Counted from the stretch's first letter, positions 37,359-55,686 are shown. The stretch: DNA of 64,000 bases from a virus (IMGVR_UViG_3300036715_001290:76490-140489), one strand, 5' to 3'. Translations and numbers: made by a program. The notes: generated by a model not told the origin, from the letters alone.

Positions 37359-37433
37359 CGCGAGATAGAGCAGTCTGGCAGCTCGCAGGGTTCATAACCC
37401 TGAGGTCGTGTGGTTCAAATCCCACTCTCGCTA
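37359..37433 (+). tRNA. Initiator tRNA-fMet(CAT)
   Basis: C1 mismatch and CAGGG-TTCATAA-CCCTG with three G-C pairs. Confidence 0.88.
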
Positions 37434-37581
37434 CTAACAGGTAAATCATTCCTGTATAATAAATGATTCATTTTTTAATGTTTTTATAAAAACCATTATT
37501 ATATGTATGTAATGTTAACAAACAATATAATGGAAAAAAATGAAACAGTTCAAAAAATAGAAAGATGCTTATAAAGAACAA

Positions 37582-37956
37582 ATGGGAAAACATAACTATA
37601 ACAATGGTATATATTTTTCTGTTGAATCAGGAATATCTAATATAGATGATTTGCCTTTTGCTGTAGGTGAAAACTTATGGATAATTATGGCCGATGGTTT
37701 TTATTTGTATGATTATGAAGAATCAGCTACTGAGTACGGTGTAACATCCGATGGTAGATGGGTTGCTTTATCTGATGGACATTGTTCTTGTTATGGTTGG
37801 GAAGCTTCGGAAGGAGATTGTACTTACTATAAAAATTTGTTAGAATTATTAAAATGTGATAATAATGCGAAAGTAATATTAAAACATAAAGATATTTTAA
37901 TACAAGTTTATCCGTTCTTGAAAAAGTACTTTACTAAAAAAGTATTAGCATGCTAA
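37582..37956 (+). CDS. Hypothetical protein
   Basis: 124-aa ORF containing GHCSCYG. Confidence 0.65.
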   Translation: MGKHNYNNGIYFSVESGISNIDDLPFAVGENLWIIMADGFYLYDYEESATEYGVTSDGRWVALSDGHCSCYGWEASEGDCTYYKNLLELLKCDNNAKVILKHKDILIQVYPFLKKYFTKKVLAC

Positions 37957-37967
37957 TACTTAAATAC

Positions 37968-38038
37968 GCAATCATAGTTTATTGGTAGAATCTCTGGCTC
38001 TCAACCAGAGGAGATGGGATCGTAACCCATTGGTTGCA
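37968..38038 (+). tRNA. tRNA-Glu(CTC)
   Basis: TCTGG-CTCTCAA-CCAGA. Confidence 0.8.
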
Positions 38039-38046
38039 CAAATCAT

Positions 38047-38120
38047 CAGGCTATAGTATATGTGGTGAGTACGCATGACTTTCAATCATGAGTGGTCGGG
38101 TTCGAGTCCCGCTAGCCTGA
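38047..38120 (+). tRNA. tRNA-Glu(TTC)
   Basis: CATGA-CTTTCAA-TCATG. Confidence 0.85.
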
Positions 38121-38258
38121 CAATATGATCATCAACTCGTTTAAGATGACAATCATACCGATAAGTTAACTCTGTCGCTGTATGCACGAGTAAAAGATCT
38201 ATTATATAAACAATTAATACTATCCGTAAACAGTCTGGATGTCTAATATTTTTAATAT

Positions 38259-38332
38259 GCCTGCAAAGTACTGAAGGTAAGTACGCCGCCTCTGTAACGC
38301 GGAACGAGTCAGTTCGATCCTGACTGTGGGCT
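38259..38332 (+). tRNA. tRNA-Thr(TGT)
   Basis: CCGC-C-TCTGTAA-C-GCGG. Confidence 0.7.
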
Positions 38333-38342
38333 CAAAATAAAT

Positions 38343-38417
38343 GCTAATGTAACTCAATTGGATTAGAGTACCGCACTTGTAATGCGGAGGTTAAGAGTTC
38401 GATTCTCTTCATTAGCT
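38343..38417 (+). tRNA. tRNA-Thr(TGT)
   Basis: CCGCA-CTTGTAA-TGCGG. Confidence 0.9.
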
Positions 38418-38436
38418 CAAACATAAAAAGGTTAAA

Positions 38437-38733
38437 ATGAAATCGTTTGATAGAATTGAATTAAGTACTTTAATTGAAAGACATCAATTTCTTTTTAAGG
38501 ATAAAAAACATCATGAATTTTCATTAGGTTTAGCAAAAGATATAATGGATATCTTTAAAGATAATATTTATATTATTGAAAATTGGTTAGAAAATACAAA
38601 TTTAAAGTATCATCCAGAATTGGATATTTTTAAAGATAAATTTGGATATTTAACAACATCTAAAGGTATTGATAATATTCTAAAACATTATTTTTTAGAA
38701 ACTACTGGTTTAACTATTGATGAGATGAAATAA
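38437..38733 (+). CDS. Hypothetical protein
   Basis: 98-aa ORF with AAGG RBS. Confidence 0.6.
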   Translation: MKSFDRIELSTLIERHQFLFKDKKHHEFSLGLAKDIMDIFKDNIYIIENWLENTNLKYHPELDIFKDKFGYLTTSKGIDNILKHYFLETTGLTIDEMK

Positions 38734-38739
38734 AAATAT

Positions 38740-38812
38740 ATCCGTGGAGCTCGACTGGTTGAGCAATTGTCTGATACGCAATAGGTTGTGAGTTCAAATC
38801 TCATCGCGGATA
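38740..38812 (+). tRNA. tRNA-Ile(GAT)
   Basis: ATTGT-CTGATAC-GCAAT. Confidence 0.82.
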
Positions 38813-38818
38813 CTAAAT

Positions 38819-38894
38819 GCCCATATAACCCCCTTCCCTGATATGGAAGATAAAGGTAATGTTGAAAATAAAGGTTCAAGTCCTTTTATGGGTA
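38819..38894 (+). tRNA. Non-canonical tRNA(GAT) lacking a normal D-arm
   Basis: CTTCC-CTGATAT-GGAAG directly after a short linker, with a long region before the T-arm. Confidence 0.6.
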
Positions 38895-38900
38895 CTATAT

Positions 38901-38974
38901 GCTGGGGTAGCATAATCGGTAAATGCATACGGCTTATATCCGTGAGACAGTGTGTTCGAACCACACCTCCAGTA
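38901..38974 (+). tRNA. tRNA-Ile(TAT)
   Basis: TACGG-CTTATAT-CCGTG. Confidence 0.8.
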
Positions 38975-39003
38975 CAAAAAATAGTTATAAAATAAAGATT
39001 CTT

Positions 39004-39782
39004 ATGGAATACACTCAAGAAAAAATTGATGAAATTATCAAAAATATTAACGAAATGAGTCAATATCAAATGGCTTATATATGGAGATTTGCTCCAAGTG
39101 GTAATATATATTTTGATAGTAAGTTACCATTTTTTGAAGTTTTTAATAAACGATTTAATGAACTTGGTGGAATGACACCTGAAATTAGTAAAAGCTTAGG
39201 ATGGAATAAATGAGTGTAACTGTAATTAAACCATGTCCATTTTGTAATAGTACAAACTTACATATGGATTATGAAGGTAATAATTCTAGTGGATTTGATG
39301 AAATTCGATGTAAAGATTGCGGAGCAATTGTAACATTTGGAAAAAAAGGTGACTGTTTCAGAGGTATAGATATTATGCAATGGAATACACGTCCAATTCC
39401 AGTTGCTATTGAATTTGATTTTAATGAAATAATTAAATACTAAGATATTATTATGACAACAAAATATTTAGTAAGAATGTTGGATTATACCAATAAAGAA
39501 AATATTGAAGTATATTTAACACCAACAAAAGAAATACGATTTGATGTAATTGCTGTAACTTTTTATAAAAATGGTGCATATGATGCAAGACCTGCTGATT
39601 ATGATTATCATAATGGTTGGTATGATTATGAACCACCAATTGAGTTAACTGTTGAACAACTTGATTTGGCATTAAAAATTGCAGAATCGGAATTGTTAAA
39701 AGAAATTAAGATAGATGTAAAAAAGAATATTGTTGATGATTTAGTAAAACTAAAAATTGATGATTTAATTTTTTATAAATGA
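39004..39782 (+). CDS. Three small hypothetical ORFs (39004-39213; 39210-39443 Lar-like Zn ribbon; 39453-39782)
   Basis: Coupled ORFs. The second has KPCPFC...C..CG...WNTR, typical of Lar-family Zn ribbons. Confidence 0.6.
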
Positions 39783-39900
39783 TATTAAAAACTGATAGTA
39801 TGGCGGAATAGTAGACGCACTGATAGTATACTATAATAATAAGTAGAACTCGGTTTATTTTTATATAGGTTCATATCCTATTACTATTAAGATTAATGAT

Positions 39901-39980
39901 GCAAGTATGGCGAAATGGTATACGCGGTCCCATATGAGGACTGTCTTACGGCATGTAGGTTCGAGTCCTACTACTTTGCA
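39901..39980 (+). tRNA. Leu-type tRNA body with a non-cognate CATATGA anticodon loop
   Basis: D-arm GGCGAAATGGTATACGC, long variable arm and A73. Confidence 0.55.
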
Positions 39981-40880
39981 CAAATGTTTATATGTTGTAT
40001 CGGTAGCAAACGGGCCGTAACTGGAGCCGGAGATCATGGTTCAATTCCTGATATAAACACTAAGTCCTTATGAACTTCGTAGGCTAAATGTCGATAGTTG
40101 AAATCAGCCTTAAGTTGGAGTTAACAACCAACATGAGCATGTTCAAGTGCATGCTTCCTGAATATAGACAGGACAAATAAATGTCGACTAAGGACTTAAT
40201 TTTAATATGTGGGTATGGTGTAATGGGTAAACATACTGGGCGTTAGCCCGTGAGACGTAGGTTCGAGTCCTGCTATCCTCTGCTTTTTATAAATAACGAG
40301 GCGACAGTACGCGCCTACAATACTAGAAATAGTAAGAGATAAAAAGGTACAAAACATATTTTTTATTTTAATTTAATTATATAGCATAAATGGTAAATGC
40401 ACACAGTCTTAGCATTGTGTAGAGTGGTTCGAGTCCACTATTGTTAGGGATGGCCTGTGTAGGTTCGAGTCCTACTATAATTAAATTATGATATGACTAC
40501 AACAACTGATGGGTAATACTAATATTAATTGGATCATTTTTGCGAATTAATATAATATGTATTTCAATTCAAGAGTAAGCAAATGTGAGGGTTGATGTTG
40601 TAGTTGCTTTTTATGAATGATGATGAGTAACGGAAGAGGGTAGACTCCAATTACATCAATTTAAGTAGATACGCCGATAAACGCTCGTGAGTACGTTACG
40701 CAAGTCGAGCAAAGCCTTAGTCGCACGGATGTAAACCAGCGGTGTTGAAATATACATCTGCATCATTCATAAATAATTAAAATACGCGGGTCGTCTAAAT
40801 TGGCAGTAGGACATTGAACGTTTAGTTCAAAGATCTAAGTTGGATCCTTAGTCTGACGTACATTTTAATTATTAACTAAA

Positions 40881-40909
40881 TTGACATTTGATTTATAAAT
40901 GGTTATATT
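40881..40909 (+). promoter_or_regulatory. Sigma70-type promoter
   Basis: TTGACA-N17-TATATT. Confidence 0.75.
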
Positions 40910-40935
40910 TGTATATAAAAATTAATGGACAATCA

Positions 40936-41358
40936 ATGCAAACATTTCTTCCATATAAATCATTTAACGAATCTGCACAATGTTTAGATTATCGTAGGTT
41001 AGGTAAACAACGTATAGAAGCTAAACAGTTATTACAAATTTTATTAAGTGAAACTGATAAGAAAGGTTGGAGAAATCATCCAGCTTTATTAATGTGGAAA
41101 GGATATGAAAATTCTTTAGCATATTATGGAATGATAATTTGTGAAGAATGGATTCGTAGAGGATATAAAGATAATCAATTAGATTATTTTAAAGAAAGAT
41201 CTAATATTGATAATGTAATATTACCACATTGGTTAGATGACAATTTTACTAAAAGTCATCGCTCAAATTTATTAAGAAAAGATAAAGAATTTTATTCTAA
41301 ATATGGTTGGGATGTTCCTGATGATTTGGAATACATTTGGCCTACAAAAATAAAATAA
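40936..41358 (+). CDS. Pyrimidine-dimer DNA glycosylase-like protein (DenV/MSMEG_6728 type)
   Basis: MQTFLPY, LD.RRLGKQR.E, W.NHPA..MW.G, SHRSNLLRKD and Y.WP. Confidence 0.85.
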   Translation: MQTFLPYKSFNESAQCLDYRRLGKQRIEAKQLLQILLSETDKKGWRNHPALLMWKGYENSLAYYGMIICEEWIRRGYKDNQLDYFKERSNIDNVILPHWLDDNFTKSHRSNLLRKDKEFYSKYGWDVPDDLEYIWPTKIK

Positions 41359-41365
41359 GGTTACT

Positions 41366-41743
41366 ATGAAAAAGTTTCTATATGTAAAGGCAGATACCAA
41401 TGATACCAATGATGCCGATTATGTTACTAGTTTGAATGAAATAGCAGATGAAGATATAAAACTAATGCAGCCTTTATTTGAGGCAATTAAAAGATTTGAA
41501 CTATATGTTGGAAATATAAGAAATTATTCACCCGGGAATCCTTGGACCCATTCTAATAACTTTCCAACAAATGAATGTTGCAGAAAAGATTTAGGTGAAA
41601 AATATGCATCTGAATTATATGCCGATTATAAGGAAGCATTTGAATTGTTTGATGAAGATTATGTTCCCAGTTCTGAATATGGTATACATACTATTGAAGA
41701 AATAAAAGTTTTTGAAGTTGAAAATGTAAGAATATTAGTATAA
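41366..41743 (+). CDS. Hypothetical protein
   Basis: 125-aa ORF, DTNDADY...YGIHTI. Confidence 0.65.
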   Translation: MKKFLYVKADTNDTNDADYVTSLNEIADEDIKLMQPLFEAIKRFELYVGNIRNYSPGNPWTHSNNFPTNECCRKDLGEKYASELYADYKEAFELFDEDYVPSSEYGIHTIEEIKVFEVENVRILV

Positions 41744-41772
41744 CCTAATTCTTCGTTATATTTATATTAAAT

Positions 41773-41857
41773 GCTGATATGGTTGTAATGGTAAACACGG
41801 AGGACTTAAAATCCTCTGGACTTAATGTCCGTAGGGGTTCGAGTCCCCTTATCAGTA
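41773..41857 (+). tRNA. tRNA-Leu(TAA)
   Basis: GAGGA-CTTAAAA-TCCTC with a long variable arm. Confidence 0.88.
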
Positions 41858-41863
41858 CAAAAT

Positions 41864-41947
41864 GGGCGGGTGGCGTAATTGGCAGCCGCATCAGACTTAA
41901 GATCTGATATCCGTAAGGGTGTGAGGGTTCGAGTCCCTCCTCGTCTA
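41864..41947 (+). tRNA. tRNA-Leu(TAA)
   Basis: TCAGA-CTTAAGA-TCTGA. Confidence 0.9.
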
Positions 41948-42056
41948 CTAATATTGTTAGGTGTTACGATAAATAGCATAACTGTTGGCTCATAACATGA
42001 GGTGATGGTAGGAACGGTTCGACTCCGTAGCAATATGAAATTAATAAAGGTTATGT

Positions 42057-42455
42057 ATGAAAACATTAGAACAACTTAAAGAAGAGTATACTAAAAGATT
42101 AATAGTTCCTATTGAAGGGTCTACTAATATTCAATTAGTTACTAAAAGTGGTTTTCCATTTTGTCCTGCTGGTTATAATAGAATTGTAATTGGTGAACGT
42201 GGACCTTATGTTGAGTTTGAAGATGTTTATATGCATAGTGTACATATTCCTGAAGACCAAGAATATAGAACAAATTGTACCTTTAGTAAAGTTTATTATA
42301 TTGAACATCGTACTATTGATGAATCAAATGTAAAAATATATGAGCAATTAAGAACTGTAAATTATGCAGATTATTTAATTGGTAAATTTTACGTATCACC
42401 ATTTGATTTGAAAATTATGGATGGGCCCAATCTTATTGAGTCTATTAAAAAATAA
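42057..42455 (+). CDS. Conserved phage hypothetical protein
   Basis: GYNRIVIGERGPYVEF...IYEQ.RTV.YADY. Confidence 0.7.
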   Translation: MKTLEQLKEEYTKRLIVPIEGSTNIQLVTKSGFPFCPAGYNRIVIGERGPYVEFEDVYMHSVHIPEDQEYRTNCTFSKVYYIEHRTIDESNVKIYEQLRTVNYADYLIGKFYVSPFDLKIMDGPNLIESIKK

Positions 42456-42555
42456 TGTTAGATTATAATAAACTTGATGTTGAATTTTCAAAAGAATTAA
42501 ATAAATGGAGTTATATAAAATTAACTTTATGGATTTTGTTCGATAAATTAAGAAT

Positions 42556-42628
42556 GCTAATGTAGTTGTAATTGGTAAAACGAGTCCTTGGTAAGGATTA
42601 GTAAACGGATCGTAACCGTTCTTTAGCT
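42556..42628 (+). tRNA. tRNA-Thr(GGT)
   Basis: AGTCC-TTGGTAA-GGATT. Confidence 0.78.
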
Positions 42629-42643
42629 CAAAAAAATACATAT

Positions 42644-42717
42644 GCCGAGGTAAGTTAATTGGATAGACGATTAGAATGTGAATCTAATCAGTATGCGTTC
42701 GAACCGCGTCCTCGGTA
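42644..42717 (+). tRNA. tRNA(GTG), His
   Basis: TTAGA-ATGTGAA-TCTAA; lacks an encoded G-1/C73. Confidence 0.7.
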
Positions 42718-42726
42718 CTAAAACAT

Positions 42727-42798
42727 TACTCTATCGTATAATGGTTATTACGCCGTCCTTTGAAGTCGGTTATTATAGTTCGAATCTATATAGAGTAG
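42727..42798 (+). tRNA. tRNA-Gln(TTG)
   Basis: CCGTC-CTTTGAA-GTCGG with U1:A72 and G73. Confidence 0.82.
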
Positions 42799-42804
42799 CA
42801 AAAT

Positions 42805-42888
42805 GCATCTATGGTGTAATAGGTAAACACGATAGTCTAAGAAGCTATTGGGAGCAATCCCGTAAGAGTTCGAGTCTCTTTAGGTGTA
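42805..42888 (+). tRNA. tRNA-Leu(AAG)
   Basis: ATAGT-CTAAGAA-GCTAT with a long variable arm. Confidence 0.85.
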
Positions 42889-42890
42889 CT

Positions 42891-43100
42891 AAATATTTAT
42901 ATGACATGTCGCTGATAATATTTATCAGAGGAACTTTGGGCATATAAAGGATATGTAGGAGATATAGAATCGTTTGTACTACAAGACGTGTATGAAACAT
43001 CAAATGATGAGTTAGCAATCCTTTAACATATCATCAGGTAAGATGGATTAGAAAAATGACATGTTGAAATAACGGAACTCTAAGTATAGTATAAATATTT
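42891..43100 (+). ncRNA. rnpB: Minimal RNase P RNA
   Basis: P1 terminal helix; P2 GACATGTC/GACATGTT; P3 hairpin; CR-I GAGGAACTTTGGG and CR-V AACGGAACTCTAAGTA forming P4; P15 loop with GGT; J18/2-like TAGAAAAATGAC. Confidence 0.75.
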
Positions 43101-43108
43101 AATCTTAG

Positions 43109-43137
43109 TTGACATTTGATATAATAATGGTTATATT
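43109..43137 (+). promoter_or_regulatory. Sigma70-type promoter
   Basis: TTGACA-N17-TATATT. Confidence 0.75.
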
Positions 43138-43156
43138 TGAATATCAATTATTTAAT

Positions 43157-43229
43157 GCGGTAGTAATTCAATTGGTAGAATACCACATTGCCAATGTGGA
43201 GGTTGTCGGTTCGAGACCGGTTTACCGCA
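43157..43229 (+). tRNA. tRNA-Gly(GCC)
   Basis: CCACA-TTGCCAA-TGTGG. Confidence 0.88.
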
Positions 43230-43315
43230 CAACATTAAAGGAAAATATTATGAAGAAACTTTTAGTAAAAGGTATATTTTTTCAGTAAGGTAAAACTAAC
43301 TAAGGAAAAATATAT

Positions 43316-43753
43316 ATGAAGAAAATCAATAAAAAAAATCCAGTAACTGTATGTATTGAATCAAATAATACATACCCAAGATTAATTACTGCAAAATTCA
43401 TTTCATATTCAGATGTTGTATCATTCTTTGTAAAAAGAGGTTATACAAAAGCAAATATTGAAAGATGGATTAAAGATTATAAAAATTCTCATAAATTTTA
43501 TGAGTATAATAAATATGATAAACAAAGTTTTAATGAACAAGCTAAAGTTGTAATTAAAGCTAATTCTCAATGGTATGGTTACAATAGCATATTTATAGAA
43601 GATCCAATTAAAATTGTTGATTCATTTGGTACTAAGATTAATTTTTATTCAACAGTACTAAATGATATAACTAAAAGATCATCTATTGAAAAGGATACTC
43701 AACCTTTTTATGACATGTATCGTGTTAGAGTACGATATTGTAAGAATCGTTAA
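43316..43753 (+). CDS. Hypothetical protein
   Basis: 145-aa ORF. Confidence 0.6.
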   Translation: MKKINKKNPVTVCIESNNTYPRLITAKFISYSDVVSFFVKRGYTKANIERWIKDYKNSHKFYEYNKYDKQSFNEQAKVVIKANSQWYGYNSIFIEDPIKIVDSFGTKINFYSTVLNDITKRSSIEKDTQPFYDMYRVRVRYCKNR

Positions 43754-43773
43754 TATTTATATTATGGATATTT

Positions 43774-43859
43774 GGAAGATCCCATGTGGTGCGGTACTCG
43801 GTCCTGAAAACCGTTAGGACGTTAATAGCGTTGTAAGAGTTCGAATCTCTTATCTTCCT
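43774..43859 (+). tRNA. tRNA-Ser(TGA)
   Basis: CGGT-CCTGAAA-ACCG with a long variable arm. Confidence 0.78.
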
Positions 43860-43866
43860 CTAAAAT

Positions 43867-43951
43867 GCTGGTGTGGTTGTAATGGTAAACACATACGCCT
43901 TAGAAGCGTAGGGGTGATCTGCCCGTGAGAGTTCGAGTCTCTCCATCAGTA
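43867..43951 (+). tRNA. tRNA-Leu(TAG)
   Basis: TACGC-CTTAGAA-GCGTA. Confidence 0.88.
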
Positions 43952-43959
43952 CAAAATAT

Positions 43960-44031
43960 GTGCGTTAAGCTGAAGTGGATAGGTATAGGTCTGCAAAACC
44001 TATGTAGTTGGTTCGAGTCCAACAATGCACT
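43960..44031 (+). tRNA. tRNA-Cys(GCA)
   Basis: TAGGT-CTGCAAA-ACCTA with U73. Confidence 0.88.
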
Positions 44032-44039
44032 CAAAATAT

Positions 44040-44112
44040 GCCCGTGTAGTTCAATGGCTCAGAATGTTAGGTCTACACCCTAATGATAACAGTTCGACTC
44101 TGTTCGCGGGTA
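44040..44112 (+). tRNA. tRNA-Val(TAC)
   Basis: TTAGG-TCTACAC-CCTAA. Confidence 0.82.
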
Positions 44113-44118
44113 CTACAT

Positions 44119-44191
44119 CCCAGTATCGTATAACGGCTTATTATATTGCGCTTCCAACGCAAGGACGTGGTTTCGATTACCACTACTGGGT
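44119..44191 (+). tRNA. tRNA-Gly(TCC)
   Basis: TTGCG-CTTCCAA-CGCAA with U73. Confidence 0.85.
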
Positions 44192-44226
44192 CAAATAAAT
44201 AGTTATTAAATAAAACAAACTAACCT

Positions 44227-44787
44227 ATGAATAAAAGATTAATAATATCAAGATATAATGAAAATTTAGATTGGCTTGATAGAATTAATTTTGATTATCT
44301 TGTTTATAATAAAGGTGAAAATATAAATCTACCATATATTAGATTGGAAAATATAGGTAGAGAAACTGATACATATTTAAGATTTATTATAGAACATTAC
44401 AATAACTTACCAAATTATTTAATATTATGTCAAGGAAATCCATTTACACATCATAGAGATTTTGTAAATGTTGTTAATGAATTTAGTCATAATGATAATT
44501 CCGTTGTTTATTTAAGTGAACATATTGTTAATGATGAACCATATAATCATAATCCTGAAAATGGTGATATAAGATGTGATAAATTATTAGACATACTTAA
44601 CATTCCATATTCTAAAAATAATCTTTTATTTCCAGCAGGAGCTCAATTTATAATACCTAAAGATAAAATAACAAATAAAACTATTGAATTTTGGAAAGAA
44701 TGTTTAAGAGTATGTAATACATATTCTATAATGCCTTGGGTATTTGAAAGAGTATTTCCTATAATATTTGAGTATAATAATGTTTGA
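44227..44787 (+). CDS. DUF3431-type protein (glycosyltransferase-associated)
   Basis: SRYNENLDW, N.GRE..TYL.FI..HY, QGNPF.H, GAQF and PW.FER. Confidence 0.8.
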   Translation: MNKRLIISRYNENLDWLDRINFDYLVYNKGENINLPYIRLENIGRETDTYLRFIIEHYNNLPNYLILCQGNPFTHHRDFVNVVNEFSHNDNSVVYLSEHIVNDEPYNHNPENGDIRCDKLLDILNIPYSKNNLLFPAGAQFIIPKDKITNKTIEFWKECLRVCNTYSIMPWVFERVFPIIFEYNNV

Positions 44788-45889
44788 ATATGATTATCTT
44801 ATTGTAGGTGCAGGACTTTATGGTTCTGTATGTGCAAGAGAATTAACAAATCTAGGATATAAATGTTTAGTTATTGATAAACGTGATCATATTGGTGGCA
44901 ATTGTTATACTTATAAATCAGATGATATTTATGTACATAAATATGGTCCACATATATTTCATACTAATGATATTAGTATTTGGAATTATGTAAATAGATT
45001 CATATCATTTAACAATTTTACTTTAAGAACAAAGGTTAACTATAAGGATAGAATTTATTCATTTCCAATTAATTTAATGTCAATATATCAAATATATGGA
45101 ATTAATAATCCATCAGATGCTATTGAAAAAATTAATGAAGTAAAAATACATAATGATCATCCTGATAATTTAGAAGAATATATTTTATCTCAAGTTGGTA
45201 AAGATCTCTATGAAATTTATATTAAAGGTTATAGTACAAAACAATGGGGAAGATCCCCTAAGGATTTACCTGCAAGTATAGTTAAAAGATTACCAATACG
45301 TTATAATTTTGATGATAGATATTTTGATGACAAATATCAAGGTATACCAATTAATGGTTATACGGAATTGTTTGAATGTTTACTTAATGATATCAGAGTA
45401 ATATTAAATGTAGATTATGATATAGAACATAATCATTTTGATTTATTAGCAAGAAATATAATCTACACTGGACCTATTGATAGATATTATAATTATTGTT
45501 ATGGTGAATTAGAATATAGAACATTAAGATTTGAAAATGAATATCATAATGTTAATGATTATCAAGGTACGGCATTAATTAACTATACTGATGTAAATGT
45601 TCCATATACTAGGATAATAGAACATAAACATTTTATGTTGAATAAATCTATTCATCAAGAAAATCATACTATTATTACTAAAGAATATCCTAAGATTTTT
45701 GAAAAGGAAGATATTCCTTATTATCCAATACCTGATAGTAAAAATAATAAATTATATAATATGTATTTATTAAAATCAAAAGGAAATTCAAATTTATCAT
45801 TTGGTGGTAGAATAGGTGAATATAAATATTATGATATGCATCAGGTTATTGCTTCAGCATTGTCATTCGTAAAGGATATTAGAAAATGA
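44780..45889 (+). CDS. glf: UDP-galactopyranose mutase
   Basis: VGAGL.G, HIGGNCY, HKYGPHIFHT, YQGIP..GY, TRIIEHKHF, PYYP and GR.GEYKYYDM. Confidence 0.95.
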   Translation: MFEYDYLIVGAGLYGSVCARELTNLGYKCLVIDKRDHIGGNCYTYKSDDIYVHKYGPHIFHTNDISIWNYVNRFISFNNFTLRTKVNYKDRIYSFPINLMSIYQIYGINNPSDAIEKINEVKIHNDHPDNLEEYILSQVGKDLYEIYIKGYSTKQWGRSPKDLPASIVKRLPIRYNFDDRYFDDKYQGIPINGYTELFECLLNDIRVILNVDYDIEHNHFDLLARNIIYTGPIDRYYNYCYGELEYRTLRFENEYHNVNDYQGTALINYTDVNVPYTRIIEHKHFMLNKSIHQENHTIITKEYPKIFEKEDIPYYPIPDSKNNKLYNMYLLKSKGNSNLSFGGRIGEYKYYDMHQVIASALSFVKDIRK

Positions 45890-47129
45890 ATATATTAGTT
45901 ATAGGTGTTTTAAGTATACTAATTTATTTTATGATTAGAACAATATTTTGGATATTAATGGCAGTAATGATATCTTATAATTCTAAGGGTAGTAAAACTA
46001 CAATTCAATTTTTATGGTATGATTTTTGGCGCGGTGCTTTCTTTGATAAAAATAACAAAATAATTTACATATGTCCAATTTCAACATGGGTCTTTAAAAT
46101 AGAAATGGAACCAAAATGATAGATGGAATAGGTGATGCATTTGGTAATTTTATAGGTGGATTGGTTACTTTATGTATTATATTTGTACCATTAGGTATAT
46201 GGAAATTTGTTGAAATAATTATATGGCTTTTTACTCATGTTAAAATTAGTTGGTAAAAAATGAAAAATCCAATAAGACCTGAAAAAGTAATACTAACATT
46301 TATAGTTAGGGATATCTCTCCTTTATTATTTTTGAACGATCTTCCAGTAAAAAGAACAATTCAATTAGAATTAACCGAAGAACAATTAAAAAAATTAAAT
46401 CTAAGATGGGTTGGTTTTGATGGTGGTAAAGATGTTTATGAATCACTTGCCGAAGTATTTATGGAAAATATTGAAATGAAATTTACCGAGGTAAATAAAT
46501 GAAAGATGACACTGTTGAATATCCACAAAATATACTTAAAGAAGAAAAAGCAATAGTGAATCAAATCTTTAAAGATGATACTGTTATTTATAATGAGTAT
46601 GATCCAATAGTTTTAAGCGACAGCACGGCAATTCAAATAAAAATATTTACTAATAAATATAGAGTTGGTGATATAGAATTAATTGAAAATGATAGTGCCG
46701 ATGAACTTAGATTTAATCGTTGGGATTTAGCCGCTATTAGATTAATAGACCAACTTGATGGTAATTATAATAGATTATTTTTAACCGCTTTGAAACGAGA
46801 GATTCAAAAAAGATTGGATGATATGAATGGTTGAATTAATTAATAAACATACTAATGAACATATAGTTTTACCAACACCCGATAATAAAATATGTAAGAT
46901 ACTTATTAAAGATAATACGGCTACACCTATTGATTGGAGTAGTGTAGAATTACCTAAAGTAAATTATACTAATAAATTAATATCCGATAATTTGGTATCA
47001 TTACGACCCATGACATATTATAAAGGTAAAGCTTTCCACTTGAATTATAAATATGGATTCTGGGGTAGGTTAAGATGGTTACTTAATAAAATTAAAATTA
47101 TTTTTACAAAAAAGATTAACAAAAAGTAG
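45886..47129 (+). CDS. Run of small hypothetical ORFs (45886-46119, 46260-46502, 46499-46834, 46827-47129)
   Basis: Coupled ORFs; the first is hydrophobic. Confidence 0.55.
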
Positions 47130-47160
47130 TATAAAACAAATACTTGATATATTTATAAAC

Positions 47161-47235
47161 ATGAAAACAAATAAATTCAATCCCAGTAATAAACGCAACT
47201 TTAGCAATCCAAGATGGAATCCTGCTGTGACGTAA
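47161..47235 (+). CDS. Putative leader (attenuator) peptide MKTNKFNPSNKRNFSNPRWNPAVT
   Basis: 24-codon ORF immediately after an ATATTTATA element and 25 nt before a strong terminator. Confidence 0.6.
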   Translation: MKTNKFNPSNKRNFSNPRWNPAVT

Positions 47236-47260
47236 CTATGTACTTTCAATTTATTTGAAG

Positions 47261-47301
47261 AAGCTGCTAAATACGTCATGGAATTATTTAGCAGCTTTTT
47301 T
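47261..47301 (+). terminator. Rho-independent terminator (candidate attenuator)
   Basis: 13-bp stem AAGCTGCTAAATA/TATTTAGCAGCTT followed by a T-tract. Confidence 0.85.
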
Positions 47302-47437
47302 AGTTTTTGTTTTATGTTCTTTATAAATGCATCAATAATTGGTCTATGGTTTATATCAGTCTAATAGGTTAAACACTTGCTAGCATCATCTAAAGCATCA
47401 ATTTTATGCAAATAACACTTATTTTGGGTTATTTATT

Positions 47438-47802
47438 AACTCTATTGACATTTTGATTAAAATTGGTTATATTTATATTATAAAATTTAACAATCAATTG
47501 GATTAAAAATAGATAAAATTATTTATTAACTCTATTGACATTTGAATAAAAAATAGTTAAATTTGTATTATAAATTTTAATTGAGAATATGAAAAATAAA
47601 GAAGAATTAATTGAATTGGCAAACACACCTGTTAAAAAATTAACAGAAGATGAAGCTAAAAAATTGTTAGTTTATTTATATGATAAATTAAATGATTTAG
47701 GAGATGATGATTTTTTTGGTACTGAAGGTTGGAAACATTTTTTTGGATTAGAAAAATAAATTTTATAACTCTATTGACAATTAAATAAAAAATGGTTAAA
47801 TT
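47438..47802 (+). promoter_or_regulatory. Three tandem sigma70-type promoters (-35 at 47445, 47535, 47774)
   Basis: AACTCTATTGACA-N17-TA(T/A)ATTT. Confidence 0.8.
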
Positions 47803-47947
47803 TGTATTATAAATAATTGATAATGAAAACAAAATATTAAAATTTTACAAATATAAAAACGGCAGTCGGTAGGAAAGTCCATATTTAGTATGGTACGTAC
47901 CGTGAGTGATATGAGGATAGAAGGCGAGCCTCAATATTTGTATATAT

Positions 47948-48020
47948 GCATCCACATGAACCAAGGCTGGCGATCTGGTCTCCAAAACCGGATGGAAGAG
48001 TTCGATTCTCTTTGGGTGTG
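47948..48020 (+). tRNA. tRNA-Trp(CCA)
   Basis: CTGGT-CTCCAAA-ACCGG with G73. Confidence 0.8.
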
Positions 48021-48221
48021 CTAATGATTAGATATATGATTCTATAACTTTTTGAAAGATTGGAGGTTGGTCAAATATTTTAATTCATAATAAATCCGAC
48101 AGGTTGATTCCCTGTAGTTGTCTGCTCATAATCAGACTGACCGACTCAAGAAAGGTTATAGGATTAAGAATTAATAGATATATTTGAAAAGAATTTAAGT
48201 AGCTAAAATTATTTTTTATAT

Positions 48222-48296
48222 CGGTATGTGGGCCAATGGCTAGGCCACTCCGTTTGGGGCGGAGGCATCGTGTAGGTTCGAGTCCTATCATACCGA
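48222..48296 (+). tRNA. tRNA-Pro(TGG)
   Basis: CTCCG-TTTGGGG-CGGAG with C1:G72 and A73. Confidence 0.9.
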
Positions 48297-48510
48297 CAAC
48301 ATCACTGGTCAGATACATCTGAATAAAACGTGTAGGGACTATAAGCTATAAGTATGCATTGATGCTTATAAGAACAGCCTTGCTTTAGAGTTAAATGAAA
48401 TATGTTAACCCAGTGGCCGTTTAATATAACTCGGTAGCTTAATGTAAAGCTGCAGGTCGTCAAGAGCTGCGTTGTGAGGTCAAAACTTTCCCGGGTTGCT
48501 AAATTTATAT

Positions 48511-48576
48511 GCCGCGGTAGCTCAATGTAGAGCGCCAGTCGACTGGTGGTTGTGAGGTCAAAACTCACCTGCGGCG
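48511..48576 (+). ncRNA. tRNA-like RNA with a truncated anticodon arm
   Basis: Normal acceptor and D arms; the anticodon arm is reduced to CCAG-TCGA-CTGG. Confidence 0.55.
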
Positions 48577-48690
48577 CAAATTTTAATTGTATTAGTGGTA
48601 GAAGAATGCAAACTCAGCGCTTCTAACGTTGATGTCGACTTAAGAGTAAAGTTTCATGTACATTGATAATACAATTAATTATTTTTACAT

Positions 48691-48765
48691 TCATTGGTAG
48701 CTCAATGGTAGAGCGCCGCGCTGTTAACGCGGATGTTGGGGGTTCGAGTCCCTCCCTCTGAGCCA
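48691..48765 (+). tRNA. tRNA-Asn(GTT)
   Basis: CCGCG-CTGTTAA-CGCGG; ends in GCCA. Confidence 0.88.
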
Positions 48766-48768
48766 TAT

Positions 48769-48844
48769 TCCTGATTAGCAATCGTGGTGAATTGCGACAA
48801 GCTGTTAACTTGTATAGAGACTGGTTCGACTCCAGTATTAGGAG
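48769..48844 (+). tRNA. tRNA-Asn(GTT)
   Basis: ACAAG-CTGTTAA-CTTGT. Confidence 0.85.
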
Positions 48845-49008
48845 CAAAGTAAATATAAAGTGGGATCTTTTGAAGATTCATTATGATACTTAACAGGTTC
48901 GAATCCTGTCTATGAGGTTATGCCTCAGAGAGTGGCAAGCGGTGGAGAAATCGATGCTATTTATTTATATATGTATATAATCCGGTTTTGTATACATATA
49001 GATATTAT

Positions 49009-49081
49009 CTGCGTATGGGCCAATTGGCAGGCTACCTGATTTGGATTCAGGGGTGTGGGGGTTCAAGTCCCTCTATGCAGA
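49009..49081 (+). tRNA. tRNA-Pro(TGG)
   Basis: CCTGA-TTTGGAT-TCAGG. Confidence 0.85.
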
Positions 49082-49305
49082 CTAAGTTTCTATTCGGAGC
49101 AATGACAATAGTTTAACCCTATTGAGATTAAGTAGAAATCGTTCATTGTGAAGATATATTGATGTTAAGTACTCTGTTGCCGTATAATGAAATTTGCAAA
49201 AATCGTTATACAATAAAGAAAGTATACCGTTGAGGAGAACATATTAGTATACGCTTAACAAATTTATGTTAATAAACTACAAATTAACTAGAAATATTTT
49301 TTTAT

Positions 49306-49380
49306 GGGTTCGTAGCAAAAATGGACAAATGCAGCTGGCTTTTAACCAGTAAAGTCCGAGTTCGACTCTCGGCGGGCCCA
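49306..49380 (+). tRNA. tRNA-Lys(TTT)
   Basis: GCTGG-CTTTTAA-CCAGT. Confidence 0.88.
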
Positions 49381-49535
49381 CTGCGGTTTTTTGGTGTAGA
49401 TAAAAGGCATACCAACGCTTATGTTGGAGGCAAAATCGCTTTGTTTTGATAATTAATATGTAGCTCTGAAACTTCGGGAAATCCTGCGCGTAGGACATTG
49501 TCTTGAGTACCGAGTATTAGTTATTGTTTTTATAT

Positions 49536-49608
49536 TGGCATGTACGAATCATGGTGAAACGGAGTGGCTGTTACCCACTTGAGGAAAGTTCGATCCTTTC
49601 CATGCCAG
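49536..49608 (+). tRNA. tRNA-Asn(GTT)
   Basis: AGTGG-CTGTTAC-CCACT with G73. Confidence 0.78.
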
Positions 49609-49931
49609 CTTTGAAATTTGTATGTAGTTTAACGGCAGAATACGGGCGGGAAGCCTGAGACCTGAGTTCGAATCTCAGCATACTAATACTAGACCGAAGA
49701 ATGTATTATACCTTCAGAAAGTATAAATGCATTAAAGATTACTTTTCCTAACAGGCCTGAATAACCTGAGATGGTATGGATTATAAAGTTATGCCGGACA
49801 TTGCAGCGTCGGTAAATAATATAATTCATCCGGAGGTTACCGTACAAAGGTGAGTAATTTAATTAAATAAAGACCCTGAATCTTTATTTCAGTAGTAAGT
49901 TGCAACTTACCTTCGGTTTATGATTTTTAAT

Positions 49932-50017
49932 GGAAGATTGCTAGAGTGGTAATAGGCCAGTTTGCTAAACTGTGACGGCGGTGAAACGCTGCATCCGTTC
50001 AAATCGGATATCTTCCT
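49932..50017 (+). tRNA. tRNA-Ser(GCT)
   Basis: CAGT-TTGCTAA-ACTG with a long variable arm. Confidence 0.85.
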
Positions 50018-50042
50018 CAACTAATAATTTTATAAAAGACTA

Positions 50043-50727
50043 ATGAATACTATAAAATGTCAGATATGTAAATCGGATTATAGATTACTTTTTGATGATA
50101 GCATACAAGGTGACGATTGTGCATGCTTCTTTAATAAAGATATGATATATGGAGCTTTTGGTACATCACTATATGATTTTATGGAATTTAAAGTATTAGA
50201 TTATAAGATATTGAATAATTTAATAATCAATGCTCCTATATGTGATAATTGTATGACTTCATTATTAGAAAATAAACAAATTAAATGTACATATAAATTA
50301 TACTGATAGGATATTATATGTCAATGAGTGATTGCCCTGAATGTTGGGATAATATTTGTACATGTGGTCATAAATATCAACATATGGATGTTGATGAATT
50401 AAAAGATCTAATAAAAGTATTACAAAAAATTGTTAAAAATAAAACAAAAAAGATTCCTTGGAATCCATTATTAACTCAAGATATAAATGAAATTATTTCA
50501 AAAAATAAAAAAATTACTTGGGTATACTTTAAGGATAAAAACAAATGGTAAATCTTTCAGATTATGAATGGAATTATGAATGTCCAATTTGTAATTCAAA
50601 ATTCAGGCCATGTAAATGTGGTATGATGAAACCTGAAAAGGTTGATGAAGAAATACAAAAGTTTGCAGATGAATTAAAGAAACTTATAATAGATTCAAAA
50701 TTTGAATGTTATCATAAATTAAAATGA
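50043..50727 (+). CDS. Three small Cys-rich hypothetical ORFs (50043-50306, 50318-50551, 50545-50727)
   Basis: Each contains CxxC motifs. Confidence 0.6.
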
Positions 50728-50732
50728 AATTT

Positions 50733-50805
50733 GGGAAGTGAACTAGTGTGGTCATAGTGGTCGCCTGAAGAGCGAAGAAAATCAGTTCGATTCTGGTACT
50801 TCCCA
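50733..50805 (+). tRNA. tRNA-Phe(GAA)
   Basis: TCGC-CTGAAGA-GCGA. Confidence 0.82.
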
Positions 50806-50810
50806 CAAAC

Positions 50811-50883
50811 GCATCGGTAGCTCAATGGTTAGAGTGCCGCACTCCTAAGGCGGGAGATATGAGTTCGACTCTCATTCGGTGTT
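50811..50883 (+). tRNA. tRNA-Arg(CCT)
   Basis: CCGC-A-CTCCTAA-G-GCGG. Confidence 0.82.
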
Positions 50884-50890
50884 CAAATAT

Positions 50891-50964
50891 GGGCCCATAG
50901 CAAAATGGTCAAATGCAGCTCCCTCTTAAGGAGTATGGTGATGGTTCGACTCCATCTGGGCTCA
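50891..50964 (+). tRNA. tRNA-Lys(CTT)
   Basis: GCTCC-CTCTTAA-GGAGT. Confidence 0.85.
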
Positions 50965-50981
50965 CAAATAAAAGGTTATTT

Positions 50982-51606
50982 ATGGAAAATGCAGAATTGG
51001 TTTACATTCCACAAAAAGTTTGGAATATAAAAAACAATAAAGTTTATGAAATTATAAATGAATTTGTTATTAATGCTACAAATTGTAGTACTAATCAAAT
51101 TATGGTTTTATATAAAGATTCTGATAATAATCTTTTTGTTCGTGAAGTAAATGAATTTAAAGAAAAATTTGTATGGATGTTAACAAAATAAAAATTAAGT
51201 CATTAAAGAAAAGAATTGAAACAGGTCCTGTACAATTTAACGATGATTGGCCTGGGATTTTTATTAGAGGTGATGAATGTTTTGCATATTACTTAGCATT
51301 ACGTGAAGTACTTAAAGCTGACATTGATATGATTACAAAATCTGAAGTTGTATGTTTAATGAATTTATTAGATAGTTCAAGAGTAAGATAATGGAAAATG
51401 GTTTATATATTGACCAAGATGAAGCAATGCTTCTTTTAGAACTTATAAGTTGTATGTATAGTCCAAGTTATGGTTTTGTTTATGATCCTGAATTTCCAGA
51501 TGATGGTGATGAGGATGTTAATAAACAAGTACTTGATAATTTTATTAAAAAATTACAAACAATAAGACAAAATTATTTAGCATTGAATAATGAAAATCAA
51601 AGTTGA
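50982..51606 (+). CDS. Small hypothetical ORFs (50982-51191 DUF1653-like; 51173-51391; 51391-51606)
   Basis: Coupled ORFs; the first has MVLY....LFVRE..EF.EKF. Confidence 0.6.
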
Positions 51607-51782
51607 AAAATATAGTATGATTGATAAATGGATTACTGTTCAAATAGGTAATGAATTATTAATTAAAATTGATTATGACTGCGTAGATCATAAATCTGTT
51701 AGAAAAGAATTGAAAGAATTAATTTCTATATTAAAGAATGATGAAAAGTCAAAATTGAATAAATGATATATTTATATTAAAT

Positions 51783-51855
51783 GCCCTTATAGTTCAATGG
51801 ATAAGAATACATCCCTGCGAAGGATGTGATTACAGTTCGAATCTGTATTTGGGTA
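51783..51855 (+). tRNA. tRNA-Arg(GCG)
   Basis: CATCC-CTGCGAA-GGATG. Confidence 0.8.
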
Positions 51856-51861
51856 CAAAAT

Positions 51862-51948
51862 GCTGATATGGTTGTAATGGTAAACACGACGTACTCAAAA
51901 TGCGTTGGATGAATGTCCGTGAGAGTTCGAGTCTCTCTATCAGTACCA
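51862..51948 (+). tRNA. tRNA-Leu(CAA)
   Basis: ACGTA-CTCAAAA-TGCGT; ends in ACCA. Confidence 0.88.
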
Positions 51949-51953
51949 AACAT

Positions 51954-52033
51954 GCTCACATAGTCGAGATCGTCTTCGAAACGATTAATCGTAATTGGAA
52001 CTGAAATTGTATGTTCGAGTCATACTGTGAGTA
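51954..52033 (+). tRNA. Non-canonical tRNA(TCG), Arg, with a displaced D-loop
   Basis: ATCGT-CTTCGAA-ACGAT; see findings. Confidence 0.65.
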
Positions 52034-52038
52034 CAAAT

Positions 52039-52118
52039 GCCGTGGTAGTCGAAGCTGTCTTCTAAACAGCTAATCGTAATAGGAACTGAAAATAAGGGTT
52101 CGATTCCCTTCCACGGTT
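52039..52118 (+). tRNA. Non-canonical tRNA(TCT), Arg, with a displaced D-loop
   Basis: GCTGT-CTTCTAA-ACAGC; see findings. Confidence 0.65.
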
Positions 52119-52129
52119 CTAATATTTTT

Positions 52130-52153
52130 TAAGCTGACAATGTCAGCTTTCTT
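52130..52153 (+). terminator. Terminator-like hairpin ending the tRNA block
   Basis: AAGCTGACA-A-TGTCAGCTT followed by TCTT. Confidence 0.55.
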
Positions 52154-52172
52154 AGCAATAAAGGTTATTAAA

Positions 52173-53195
52173 ATGTCAACATTATTATCAAGAGATGAAT
52201 TTAGAAAATCCGTTTTAGAACGTGATAATTATAAGTGCGTCATATGTGGAGAAAGTAATAATCCAGTTGCTCATCATATTTTAGAACGTAGGTTATTTAA
52301 TGACGGTGGATATTATTTAGATAATGGTGCAACTGTTTGTAACAATTGTCATTTCTTAGCAGAGTCAACAACAATTTCAGTTGAAACTCTTAGAGAAAAA
52401 ATAAAAGCAAATGAAAATATTTTACCTGAACATTTTTATTCCGATTTAGTTTATGATAAGTGGGGTAATATTATATTACCAAATGGAACTAGATTAAAGG
52501 GTGAGTTATTTTTTGATGAAAGTGTACAAAAGATAATTAAAATATATCTTAATATGTTTGTTAAGTATGTTAAATATCCTAGAACATATCATACACCTTG
52601 GTCATTAGGAATGCACGATGATGATAGAATGATTGATAGTATGGATAACTTTATAGGTAAGGATGTTGTAGTATCTATTAAAATGGATGGTGAAAATACT
52701 ACAATGTATAATGATAATATTCATGCTAGGTCAATTGATTCAAATAATCATGAATCTAGAAATTGGGTAAAGAATTTTTGGAATACTATATCATATGAAA
52801 TTCCTGATAATTGGAGAATATGTGGTGAAAATCTATTTGCTAAACATTCTACTGTTTATAATGATTTACCATCATATTTTTTAGGATTTTCTATTTGGAA
52901 TGAAAAAAATATATGTTTATCTTGGGATGATACTATTACTTATTTTGATTTATTAAATATAAAATCAGTACCGGTATTATATAAAGGAATTTATGATGAA
53001 GATTTAATTAAATCTTTATGGGATAAATCTAAATATGATACAACTGAAGGATATGTAATTAGATTATCTGATTCTTTTTCTTATGGTGATTTTAGAAAAA
53101 GTGTAGCTAAATTTGTTAGACCTAATCACGTACAAACTGCTAAGCATTGGTTTGAAGGTCAACGTATGGAATGTAATAAATTAAAACTAAGTTGA
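52173..53195 (+). CDS. HNH endonuclease-like domain fused to an ATP-dependent RNA ligase (Rnl2-type family)
   Basis: N-terminal RDNYKCVICG...AHHI...NG..VC..CH; C-terminal KYPRT.H.PWS, KMDGEN, GEN, EGYVIR and KFVR. Confidence 0.85.
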   Translation: MSTLLSRDEFRKSVLERDNYKCVICGESNNPVAHHILERRLFNDGGYYLDNGATVCNNCHFLAESTTISVETLREKIKANENILPEHFYSDLVYDKWGNIILPNGTRLKGELFFDESVQKIIKIYLNMFVKYVKYPRTYHTPWSLGMHDDDRMIDSMDNFIGKDVVVSIKMDGENTTMYNDNIHARSIDSNNHESRNWVKNFWNTISYEIPDNWRICGENLFAKHSTVYNDLPSYFLGFSIWNEKNICLSWDDTITYFDLLNIKSVPVLYKGIYDEDLIKSLWDKSKYDTTEGYVIRLSDSFSYGDFRKSVAKFVRPNHVQTAKHWFEGQRMECNKLKLS

Positions 53196-55230: not shown

Positions 55231-55587
55231 GGGGATGAACTAGATTCGACTGTGATAGATTGTTATATGAGTGCAAGTAGATGTTATAAGTAAGCATTTT
55301 TAAAAAATACCTAAAACAATAAGTGCAGAAAACACTTACCTTTTAGCTGCTTAATCGTAGCTAAACATTTATTCTCCCATTGTCGAGTAATAGAATAAAT
55401 GATGCAAATCGACTAAATTATGTTGACAGTAATAAGATACTAATTATCTCAGAACTGTATGAAGAATTGATATGTAATTTCATAAAGAAACATTCCGTTT
55501 TGTTTAGTTATCGTAAAACTTTACTAAACTTGTGAAAGACTTATATTTAGTAGATTGCAACACTGGGGGCAGTACCCCACATCTCCA
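55231..55587 (+). ncRNA. ssrA: tmRNA, tag (A)AENTYLLAA*
   Basis: 5' GGGGATG...GATTCGAC and 3' GGGGGCAGTACCCCACATCTCCA with G3:U70; resume codon after ATAAGT: GCA GAA AAC ACT TAC CTT TTA GCT GCT TAA. Confidence 0.92.
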
Positions 55588-55686
55588 CTAAAATACTTTA
55601 GATAAATTACATATTTTATTTATTTCTAAATAATTATAATTAGATACAAACTCTAATACATACACTTAAATCTACGGAGTAAGCCT

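Follow-up and report, generated by a model that had tools for sequence, protein, structure and literature searches.

A leader unit with tRNA-matched codons ahead of a phage tRNA block, a candidate attenuator of tRNA genes

The window analysed here is a stretch of 64,000 nucleotides (nt), the final 64 kb of a 140,489-bp IMG/VR viral sequence (IMGVR_UViG_3300036715_001290:76490-140489). Our subject is a short unit at 47148-47303 (positions counted from the first letter of the window), which consists of a promoter box, a small open reading frame (ORF) and an intrinsic terminator, and which we consider as a candidate transcription attenuator of the tRNA genes behind it. The sequence has a G+C of 28%, carries 153 of the 165 ORFs of the genome on the plus strand and encodes T4-type portal, major capsid and terminase proteins together with a tail sheath and a family B polymerase, which identifies a T4-like phage. 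This phage is a deep branch, the nearest major capsid protein in a search of 2.9 million viral contigs being only 57% identical. ARAGORN called 40 tRNA genes in two blocks, 33093-44192 (block 1) and 48222-51948 (block 2), separated by about 4 kb of protein genes, and the leader unit lies at the end of that stretch. The features needed for the argument are the following.

47148-47157, plus strand: promoter box TATATTTATA, a 10-mer whose first six bases (TATATT) are read as the -10 hexamer
47161-47235, plus strand: leader ORF, 24 codons and a TAA stop
47161-47169, plus strand: MKT start module of the leader ORF
47170-47223, plus strand: putative sensor codons, 18 consecutive, all read by block-2 tRNAs (six Asn, two Lys, three Pro, two Phe, two Ser of the AGY type, two Arg and one Trp)
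47224-47235, plus strand: three structural codons and the stop of the leader ORF
47168-47191 with 47238-47257, plus strand: predicted early-leader pairing in the full-length minimum-energy fold, resembling the trp 1:2 pairing
47225-47281, plus strand: predicted antiterminator hairpin, folding free energy (dG) -14.8
47258-47303, plus strand: intrinsic terminator with a stem of 13-16 bp, an 11-nt loop and six T
47438-47802, plus strand: three early sigma70-type promoters with a common 13-mer ending in TTGACA (starts 47438, 47528 and 47767)
48222-51948, plus strand: tRNA block 2, with 12 canonical tRNAs, two tRNA-like genes and small ORFs

The ORF of 24 codons at 47161-47235, which had been reported in the first-pass annotation of this DNA, is largely composed of codons read by the tRNAs encoded downstream. 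The canonical tRNAs of block 2 are Pro(TGG) twice, Asn(GTT) three times, Lys(TTT), Lys(CTT), Ser(GCT), Phe(GAA), Arg(CCT), Arg(GCG) and Leu(CAA). All 12 had been listed correctly, but the Trp(CCA), Arg(TCG) and Arg(TCT) of the same list are present only as non-canonical tRNA-like genes. With the complete list, 19 of the 23 codons after the ATG match, namely the Lys codon at position 2 and an unbroken run of 18 (codons 4-21), in agreement with the statement that codons 2-21 specify almost only block-2 amino acids; with the ARAGORN tRNAs only, the match is 17 of 23. Open-frame mononucleotide shuffles of the ORF gave a mean of 8.5 matches (sd 2.2) and none of 20,000 reached 19, while the binomial probability of at least 19 of 23 is 4.5e-7 at a set usage of 0.309 (30.9% of codons in the phage's real genes). 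The whole genome has 609 ORFs of 20-40 codons that start with ATG, and among them the leader ranks first with a match fraction of 0.83, the next reaching 0.70 and the mean being 0.31 (sd 0.11). Likewise, the 77,235 open six-frame windows of 23 codons in the 140-kb genome include six with at least 19 matches, all of them inside the leader ORF, and the best value elsewhere is 18. The codon match of the leader is above chance, and by a strong margin in these statistics.

The tRNAs on the other side of the unit show the opposite relation, with only 1 of 23 leader codons matching any of the nine tRNAs encoded in the 6 kb before the unit, compared with 0.34 expected per codon. Amino acids with tRNAs only upstream had been described as missing from the leader, which is borne out by this count but not to the letter, as Thr, Ala, Val and Met occur in it, at codons 1, 3 and 22-24. 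The division into upstream and downstream tRNAs also had to be amended, because an Asn(GTT) gene is present upstream as well, at 33904, and ARAGORN called no tRNA-Cys anywhere in the 64-kb window. The four mismatching codons are clustered: they are Thr3 and the last three codons, and the latter (P 0.0023) belong to the 5' strand of the predicted antiterminator. Two other small ORFs, at 34916 and 39571, gave a fair match in a generic scan and were rejected, both lying off-frame inside protein genes. A 66-codon ORF on the minus strand (47079-47279) was judged an artefact, the T-rich mirror of the A-rich strand in a genome whose ORFs lie overwhelmingly on the plus strand.

The motif ATATTTATA at 47149-47157, from which the annotation had started, lies within the 10-mer TATATTTATA, which has 26 copies on the plus strand and 4 on the minus strand. 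Of the plus-strand copies, 18 are intergenic, in a genome with 11% intergenic DNA. The box stands 18-36 nt ahead of the start codon of structural genes such as that of the tail sheath, often directly after the terminator of the preceding gene. Its strand bias, intergenic position and place before structural genes bear out the suggestion of a late promoter and point to a real, strand-specific late-type promoter of a T4-like phage. In four copies TTGACA is found exactly 17 nt upstream of the first six bases of the box, which indicates that TATATT is the -10 hexamer and that transcription would start about 7 nt downstream. The leader ATG lies 7 nt past this hexamer, and 3 nt past the end of the box, so that the start predicted at 47160, plus or minus a base, would coincide with the ATG at 47161 and yield a leaderless mRNA, a geometry which fits the missing Shine-Dalgarno sequence. 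Late-type boxes at 41757, 51767 and 55214 were also observed 6-7 nt before the mature 5' ends of tRNA-Leu 41773, tRNA-Arg 51783 and the transfer-messenger RNA (55231-55590), which would be transcribed with leaders of only a few bases.

The 13-bp terminator annotated at 47261-47301 was confirmed and is strong. Its core stem pairs 47261-47273 with 47285-47297 and is lengthened by A-U pairs, with a dG of -15.5 to -21.6 and a fold z-score of -2.8 for 47140-47315. It lies 25 nt past the leader stop and 118-130 nt past the stop of the upstream gene cluster, compared with 0-8 nt past a stop for the other intergenic terminators of the genome. The proposed pairing of the last codons and stop with the top of the terminator is also present (47225-47234 with 47272-47281, 10 bp including two G-U) and forms the base of a longer imperfect hairpin, 47225-47281, but it does not exceed what shuffled sequences give (p 0.12-0.20). 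The 5' strand of this predicted antiterminator runs from the last three codons through the stop into the next 14 nt, and its 3' strand comprises the terminator 5' arm and loop; since the hairpin contains the whole 5' arm, terminator and antiterminator are truly exclusive. A leader 7-mer (47200-47206) is complementary to 47265-47271 in the same arm, as had been noticed before.

When the nascent RNA was folded up to the terminator loop, the hairpin 47225-47281 was the minimum-energy structure. Folding with and without the stop region masked, a comparison proposed in the first-pass annotation, left the antiterminator free to form with a ribosome footprint at codons 7, 13 or 17 (-16 to -19) and abolished it with the footprint on the stop codon, where a weak 7-bp pairing was left (-7.4). 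No match to a T-box riboswitch or to any other Rfam family was obtained in 47100-47320, at E values up to 0.1 or at the gathering score.

Units of this kind recur in unrelated tRNA-rich phages. Loci were fetched via RNA ligase and UDP-galactopyranose mutase, and small ORFs were scored against the tRNAs in the next 5.5 kb. This match-based scan gave 8 of 268 ORF-block pairs with p <=0.001, against 0.27 expected, and the hits share an architecture in which a small ORF is followed by a strong terminator and then by a tRNA block. The leaders recovered, by locus and coordinates, are these.

L055, 5540-5623: leader in which the nine tRNAs that follow (Cys, Asn, Glu, Lys, Tyr, Gln, Asp, Gly, Gly) read 18 of 26 codons
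L035, 7572-7622: leader whose first 12 residues past Met are only Asn, Arg, Trp, Phe and Ile; the block is Trp, Arg, Arg, Asn, Phe, Arg, Ile, Arg
L035, 11197-11256: leader of a second unit
L027, 2878-2982: leader with 20 consecutive residues that are all among the nine amino acids served by the 16 tRNAs that follow
L021, 1289-1408: further leader unit
L003, 8111-8197: further leader unit

Units were also defined by structure only: a tRNA had to be preceded, at a distance of at most 1 kb, by a terminator of <=-12 kcal/mol, and the longest ATG ORF whose end lay <=80 nt ahead of that terminator was taken as the leader. Seven such units gave a Fisher combined p of 6e-11, or 1.8e-7 without this window, so the permutation check on other phage tRNA arrays that had been envisaged, leader codons against downstream anticodons, came out positive. 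In a 7x7 comparison of leaders and blocks the true pairing ranked first or second among the 5040 permutations at each block size taken (3, 6 and 9 kb), a test that is not selection-free as most of the seven leaders were taken from the match-based scan. The leaders match their downstream tRNA sets (3e-12) and avoid the upstream ones (lower-tail Fisher 7.5e-5), and we regard the recurrence, like the codon statistics, as strong.

The structural side recurs as well, and the last leader codons are base-paired with the terminator 5' arm in the nascent folds of 7 of 8 units. Tested against 2000 shuffles, the duplex of the 5' arm with the stop-proximal sequence gave p values of 0.001 (L055), 0.0025 (L035b), 0.012 (L021) and 0.035 (L027), whereas three units failed (this one with p 0.20, L003 with 0.47 and L004 with 0.71); the combined Fisher p across units is 1.3e-5. 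The terminator abuts the first tRNA in L055 and L027, leaving no room for another promoter, and the tRNAs of those two loci are therefore reachable only by read-through. L003, L021 and L035 resemble the present unit in having a sigma70 promoter after the terminator, which suggests that intervening promoters are part of the design rather than an objection to it. Four leaders (this one, L003, L027 and L055) begin with MKT whatever their tRNA set, which looks like a start module and gives a hint of real translation.

A cultured phage, Caulobacter phage CcrBL9 (NC_048047), carries the same design. Its gp552, annotated as a 39-residue 'hypothetical protein' (81307-81426 of the record, L229 3908-4027), stands 120 nt before a block of 12 tRNAs (Pro, Thr, Lys, three Leu, His, Ala, three Ser and Trp). 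Of 38 residues, 33 belong to those eight amino acids, and the codon-level match is 27/38 (p 1.6e-4), so that gp552 is most likely the leader peptide of the block behind it. A second unit in this phage, unit B, has an unannotated ORF (L229 11399-11497) before a terminator and a Val, Ile, Val, Gln, Asn, Arg, Phe block; 16 of 31 codons match (p 2e-3), and the ORF starts 7 nt past a -10 hexamer, the same spacing as that of the leader at 47161. A third short ORF of CcrBL9, before Glu and Asp tRNAs, showed no match to those tRNAs. The other units (L055, both of L035, L027, L021, L003, gp552 and unit B) thus have the architecture of the present one and leader residues that match the tRNAs behind the terminator; they share no sequence homology with it, and the tRNA set differs in each. 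The present unit differs from them in having the longest gap to its tRNAs (650-920 nt), with three intervening promoters.

These results support the interpretation advanced in the first-pass annotation: given the codon match, its covariation in other phages and the folding under a ribosome mask, we consider it probable that the leader unit is a ribosome-mediated (leader-peptide) transcription attenuator which meters tRNA block 2. In the mechanism that we propose, the late-type box at 47148-47157 would start a leaderless transcript at the ATG of 47161 or within a base or two of it, and a ribosome would translate the 24-codon leader, whose 18 central codons are those of the downstream tRNAs. If all of them are read fast, the ribosome arriving at the last codons and the stop would cover 47225-47247 and block the antiterminator, and the terminator would end the RNA at about 140 nt. 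If any of the matching tRNAs is scarce, the ribosome would stall within codons 4-17, and the hairpin 47225-47281 would form and sequester the terminator 5' arm. RNA polymerase is then predicted to continue over 650-920 nt, through the early-promoter cluster, into block 2 and perhaps into the RNA ligase gene that follows. The three sigma70 promoters would provide unconditional early expression, and the attenuator would be an added, demand-controlled late input.

What signal the unit would respond to can be pictured in two ways. That the trigger is the loss of tRNAs to host anticodon nucleases is speculation, and plain feedback on tRNA supply fits equally well; the RNA ligase at 52140 and nearby repair genes fit the nuclease reading, but the position of a ligase in the other loci proves nothing, because those loci were partly selected via RNA ligase. 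We are also inclined to think that the unit represents a widespread, so far undescribed 'checklist' class of attenuators, through which tRNA-rich phages would meter their own tRNA genes, and here perhaps the adjoining ligase, by decoding speed. The role of such a class would be that of a homeostat for tRNA supply or, alternatively, of a sentinel that responds when tRNAs are lost.

Between the terminator and the end of the tRNA region, and directly behind it, the following further features were found.

47589-47759, plus strand: ORF of 56 residues, with no Pfam family
47948-48019, plus strand: non-canonical tRNA-like gene with a CCA (Trp) anticodon loop, 25.7 bits, under the Rfam gathering score
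48511-48576 and 49618-49686, plus strand: tRNA-like genes without a usable anticodon
51954-52118, plus strand: two non-canonical tRNA-like genes with anticodon loops TCG and TCT (Arg)
52140-53195, plus strand: HNH-RNA ligase gene (PF09414), directly after block 2

The Trp(CCA), Arg(TCG) and Arg(TCT) genes have good anticodon arms; Trp and Arg(TCT) score below the Rfam gathering threshold, and Arg(TCG) was recognised by reading the sequence only. The tRNA-like genes at 48511-48576, 49618-49686 and 51954-52118 have good acceptor and T arms, combined with odd or unusable anticodon or D arms. No strong terminator was found between 47303 and 52140 outside the tRNA bodies, and the RNA ligase gene may therefore be co-transcribed with block 2. 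The sigma70-type promoters that the first-pass annotation had raised as a caveat are indeed present between the terminator and the tRNAs, at 47445, 47535 and 47774. Their 13-mer occurs eight times in the genome (32041, 32240, 32634, 35880, 35972, 47438, 47528 and 47767), always on the plus strand, in intergenic positions and in the tRNA region. It marks eight near-identical sigma70-type promoters, apparently an early family that serves the tRNA operons specifically.

A second promoter-terminator unit precedes tRNA block 1, at 31873-32030, with the same promoter box, an RNA of about 140 nt, a terminator at 31999-32023 and then three of the early 13-mers (32041, 32240, 32634). It has no homology to the leader unit at 47148-47303. 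Its ORF, at 31950, has 8 codons, with 7/7 belonging to the block-1 set (p ~0.05). With this short ORF only and no antiterminator, the unit was not upheld as a second attenuator; it could be a small RNA, a decayed attenuator or something else.

Close relatives of the locus were sought in several collections. A blastn search of 46800-48300 against 50,697 phage records gave no match, the flanking 100-residue protein had none in the viral contigs, no match to the exact terminator sequence was found, and tblastn of 15 neighbourhood proteins against 132 loci revealed no synteny. The region is present on five other contigs at 99.99-100% identity, which indicates that the sequence is not an assembly artefact and carries no information on constraint. 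The 111-residue protein encoded next to the leader (46499-46834) has as its sole matches, among 5.8 billion proteins searched, identical copies on a few contigs from related samples. Amber-suppressor tRNA genes were noticed in the window and in L021: the window encodes a tRNA with a CTA anticodon (34583-34654) 1 kb before a PTH2-type peptidyl-tRNA hydrolase gene (35575-35877) with an in-frame TAG, which the Pfam match spans when the codon is read through (E 3e-5), and in L021 (8972-9174) a strong terminator, preceded by a 42-codon ORF rich in Lys, Thr, Val and Asn, stands directly before an amber-suppressor tRNA (9179-9250).

Several observations weigh against the attenuator. Three strong promoters and the 56-codon ORF occupy the 650-920 nt that separate the terminator from the tRNAs, and the block-2 genes, having promoters of their own, do not depend on read-through; a switch at this position can therefore add to tRNA transcription and cannot gate it. 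The codon match itself has gaps, as Leu(CAA) is encoded in block 2 without any codon in the leader, and the Trp and AGA matches rely on non-canonical tRNA-like genes. The coding-potential score of the leader is ambiguous, as 97% of real-gene windows score higher and 87% of small ORFs lower. No Shine-Dalgarno sequence precedes its ATG, where 70% of the phage's genes have GG at -17 to -4, so its translation would hinge on leaderless initiation from the predicted start, and a start 2-3 nt further downstream would lose the ATG. At equilibrium the terminator always wins once its 3' arm is present, so a switch could only work kinetically, in the manner of the trp leader. The antiterminator does not exceed chance: when the 94 nt upstream were shuffled by dinucleotides, 11.5% of the shuffles folded equally well and 16% paired as many arm bases, in line with the p of 0.20 in the duplex test. 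The unit ahead of block 1 has only its 8-codon ORF and no antiterminator, and the collections searched contained no close relative that would show this particular ORF to be conserved.

Some of these points would suit a different reading, that of a stand-alone small unit whose RNA of about 140 nt is always terminated and serves as a small RNA or as the mRNA of a small basic peptide, with the terminator insulating the tRNA operon and the codon match being a coincidence. A promoter, some 140 nt and a terminator are the anatomy of a small RNA gene, the T4 tRNA region carries small stable RNAs of unknown role, a unit of the same length stands ahead of block 1 without a matched leader, the three promoters make a switch dispensable, and the antiterminator is not above chance. 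We nevertheless find this unlikely, because the codon match is a whole-genome extreme, the leader avoids the upstream tRNA set, the match recurs at structure-defined units of unrelated phages and the region is without any Rfam family match. The codon statistics hold equally for a leader that is translated and senses decoding but acts on another output, either as a trans-acting attenuator RNA or peptide or by controlling processing or stability, and the long distance and intervening promoters weaken the case for an effect in cis. A precedent for a trans-acting attenuator RNA and peptide is described for rnTrpL and peTrpL in Sinorhizobium (PMC6614838, PMC7298713). The abutting terminators of L055 and L027 argue for control in cis within the class, and with no trans target known, we judge another output to be improbable here.

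The two remaining explanations give the ORF no role. Antitermination of the lambda PR'-tR' type (6S RNA, Q protein), in which a phage protein alters RNA polymerase and the ORF is irrelevant, would account for a late promoter with a terminator about 140 nt on, found twice and each time ahead of a tRNA block. It leaves the codon match and its recurrence unexplained, and a Q-like gene was not seen, though no search was aimed at one; we hold it very unlikely. Similarly remote is the idea that the terminator simply marks the end of the gene cluster upstream (44227-47129), whose 3' untranslated region would contain an ORF by chance. It is indeed the first terminator after that cluster, but its distance from the cluster stop is far outside the 0-8 nt usual in this genome, the promoter box lies between cluster and terminator, and the codon statistics oppose a chance ORF.

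The usual view of phage tRNA genes is that they help with codon usage or replace tRNAs cleaved by host defences, and to our knowledge the control of their expression is largely unknown. The full-text literature, whose coverage leaves out most subscription journals, yielded no account of phage or bacterial tRNA genes being controlled by a leader peptide and no publication on a multi-tRNA sensor at a phage tRNA array, in line with what the first-pass annotation had said. Attenuation is a known mechanism; what would be new is the tRNA-gene target and the leader with 'many codons, once each'. If the attenuator is real, it would be the first attenuation system with tRNAs themselves as the output, a closed feedback loop on decoding capacity, and it would account for the particular composition of phage tRNA gene blocks. 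The arrangement offers a simple sequence signature for finding such operons, with CcrBL9 as a cultured carrier, and a compact multi-tRNA sensor could serve synthetic biology.

Among known systems, the proposed attenuator is closest in logic to trpL, hisL, leuL and pheL of E. coli and Salmonella, where a short ORF rich in regulatory codons precedes an intrinsic terminator and an alternative hairpin that includes the terminator 5' arm, the position of the ribosome picks the hairpin and a ribosome at the stop favours termination. It differs from them in that tRNA genes rather than biosynthetic enzymes would be controlled, with tRNA supply as the signal, and in that the leader samples eight amino acids, each one to six times, where those leaders have a run of a single one. 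The predicted leaderless mRNA from a phage late promoter and the constitutive promoters between terminator and genes also set it apart. Interspersed codons for several amino acids in one leader are known from ilvGMEDA (Ile, Val, Leu) and thr (Thr, Ile), but these involve two or three related amino acids and pathway-enzyme targets, whereas the eight sampled here are unrelated. T-box riboswitches likewise let tRNA status set terminator read-through through an antiterminator, yet they bind tRNA directly, without translation, and have no Rfam match at the leader unit. The lambda PR'-tR' (6S RNA)/Q system, finally, shares a late promoter with a terminator within 150-200 nt, ahead of the genes it serves, and differs in that a protein factor gives the read-through and no codon logic is involved.

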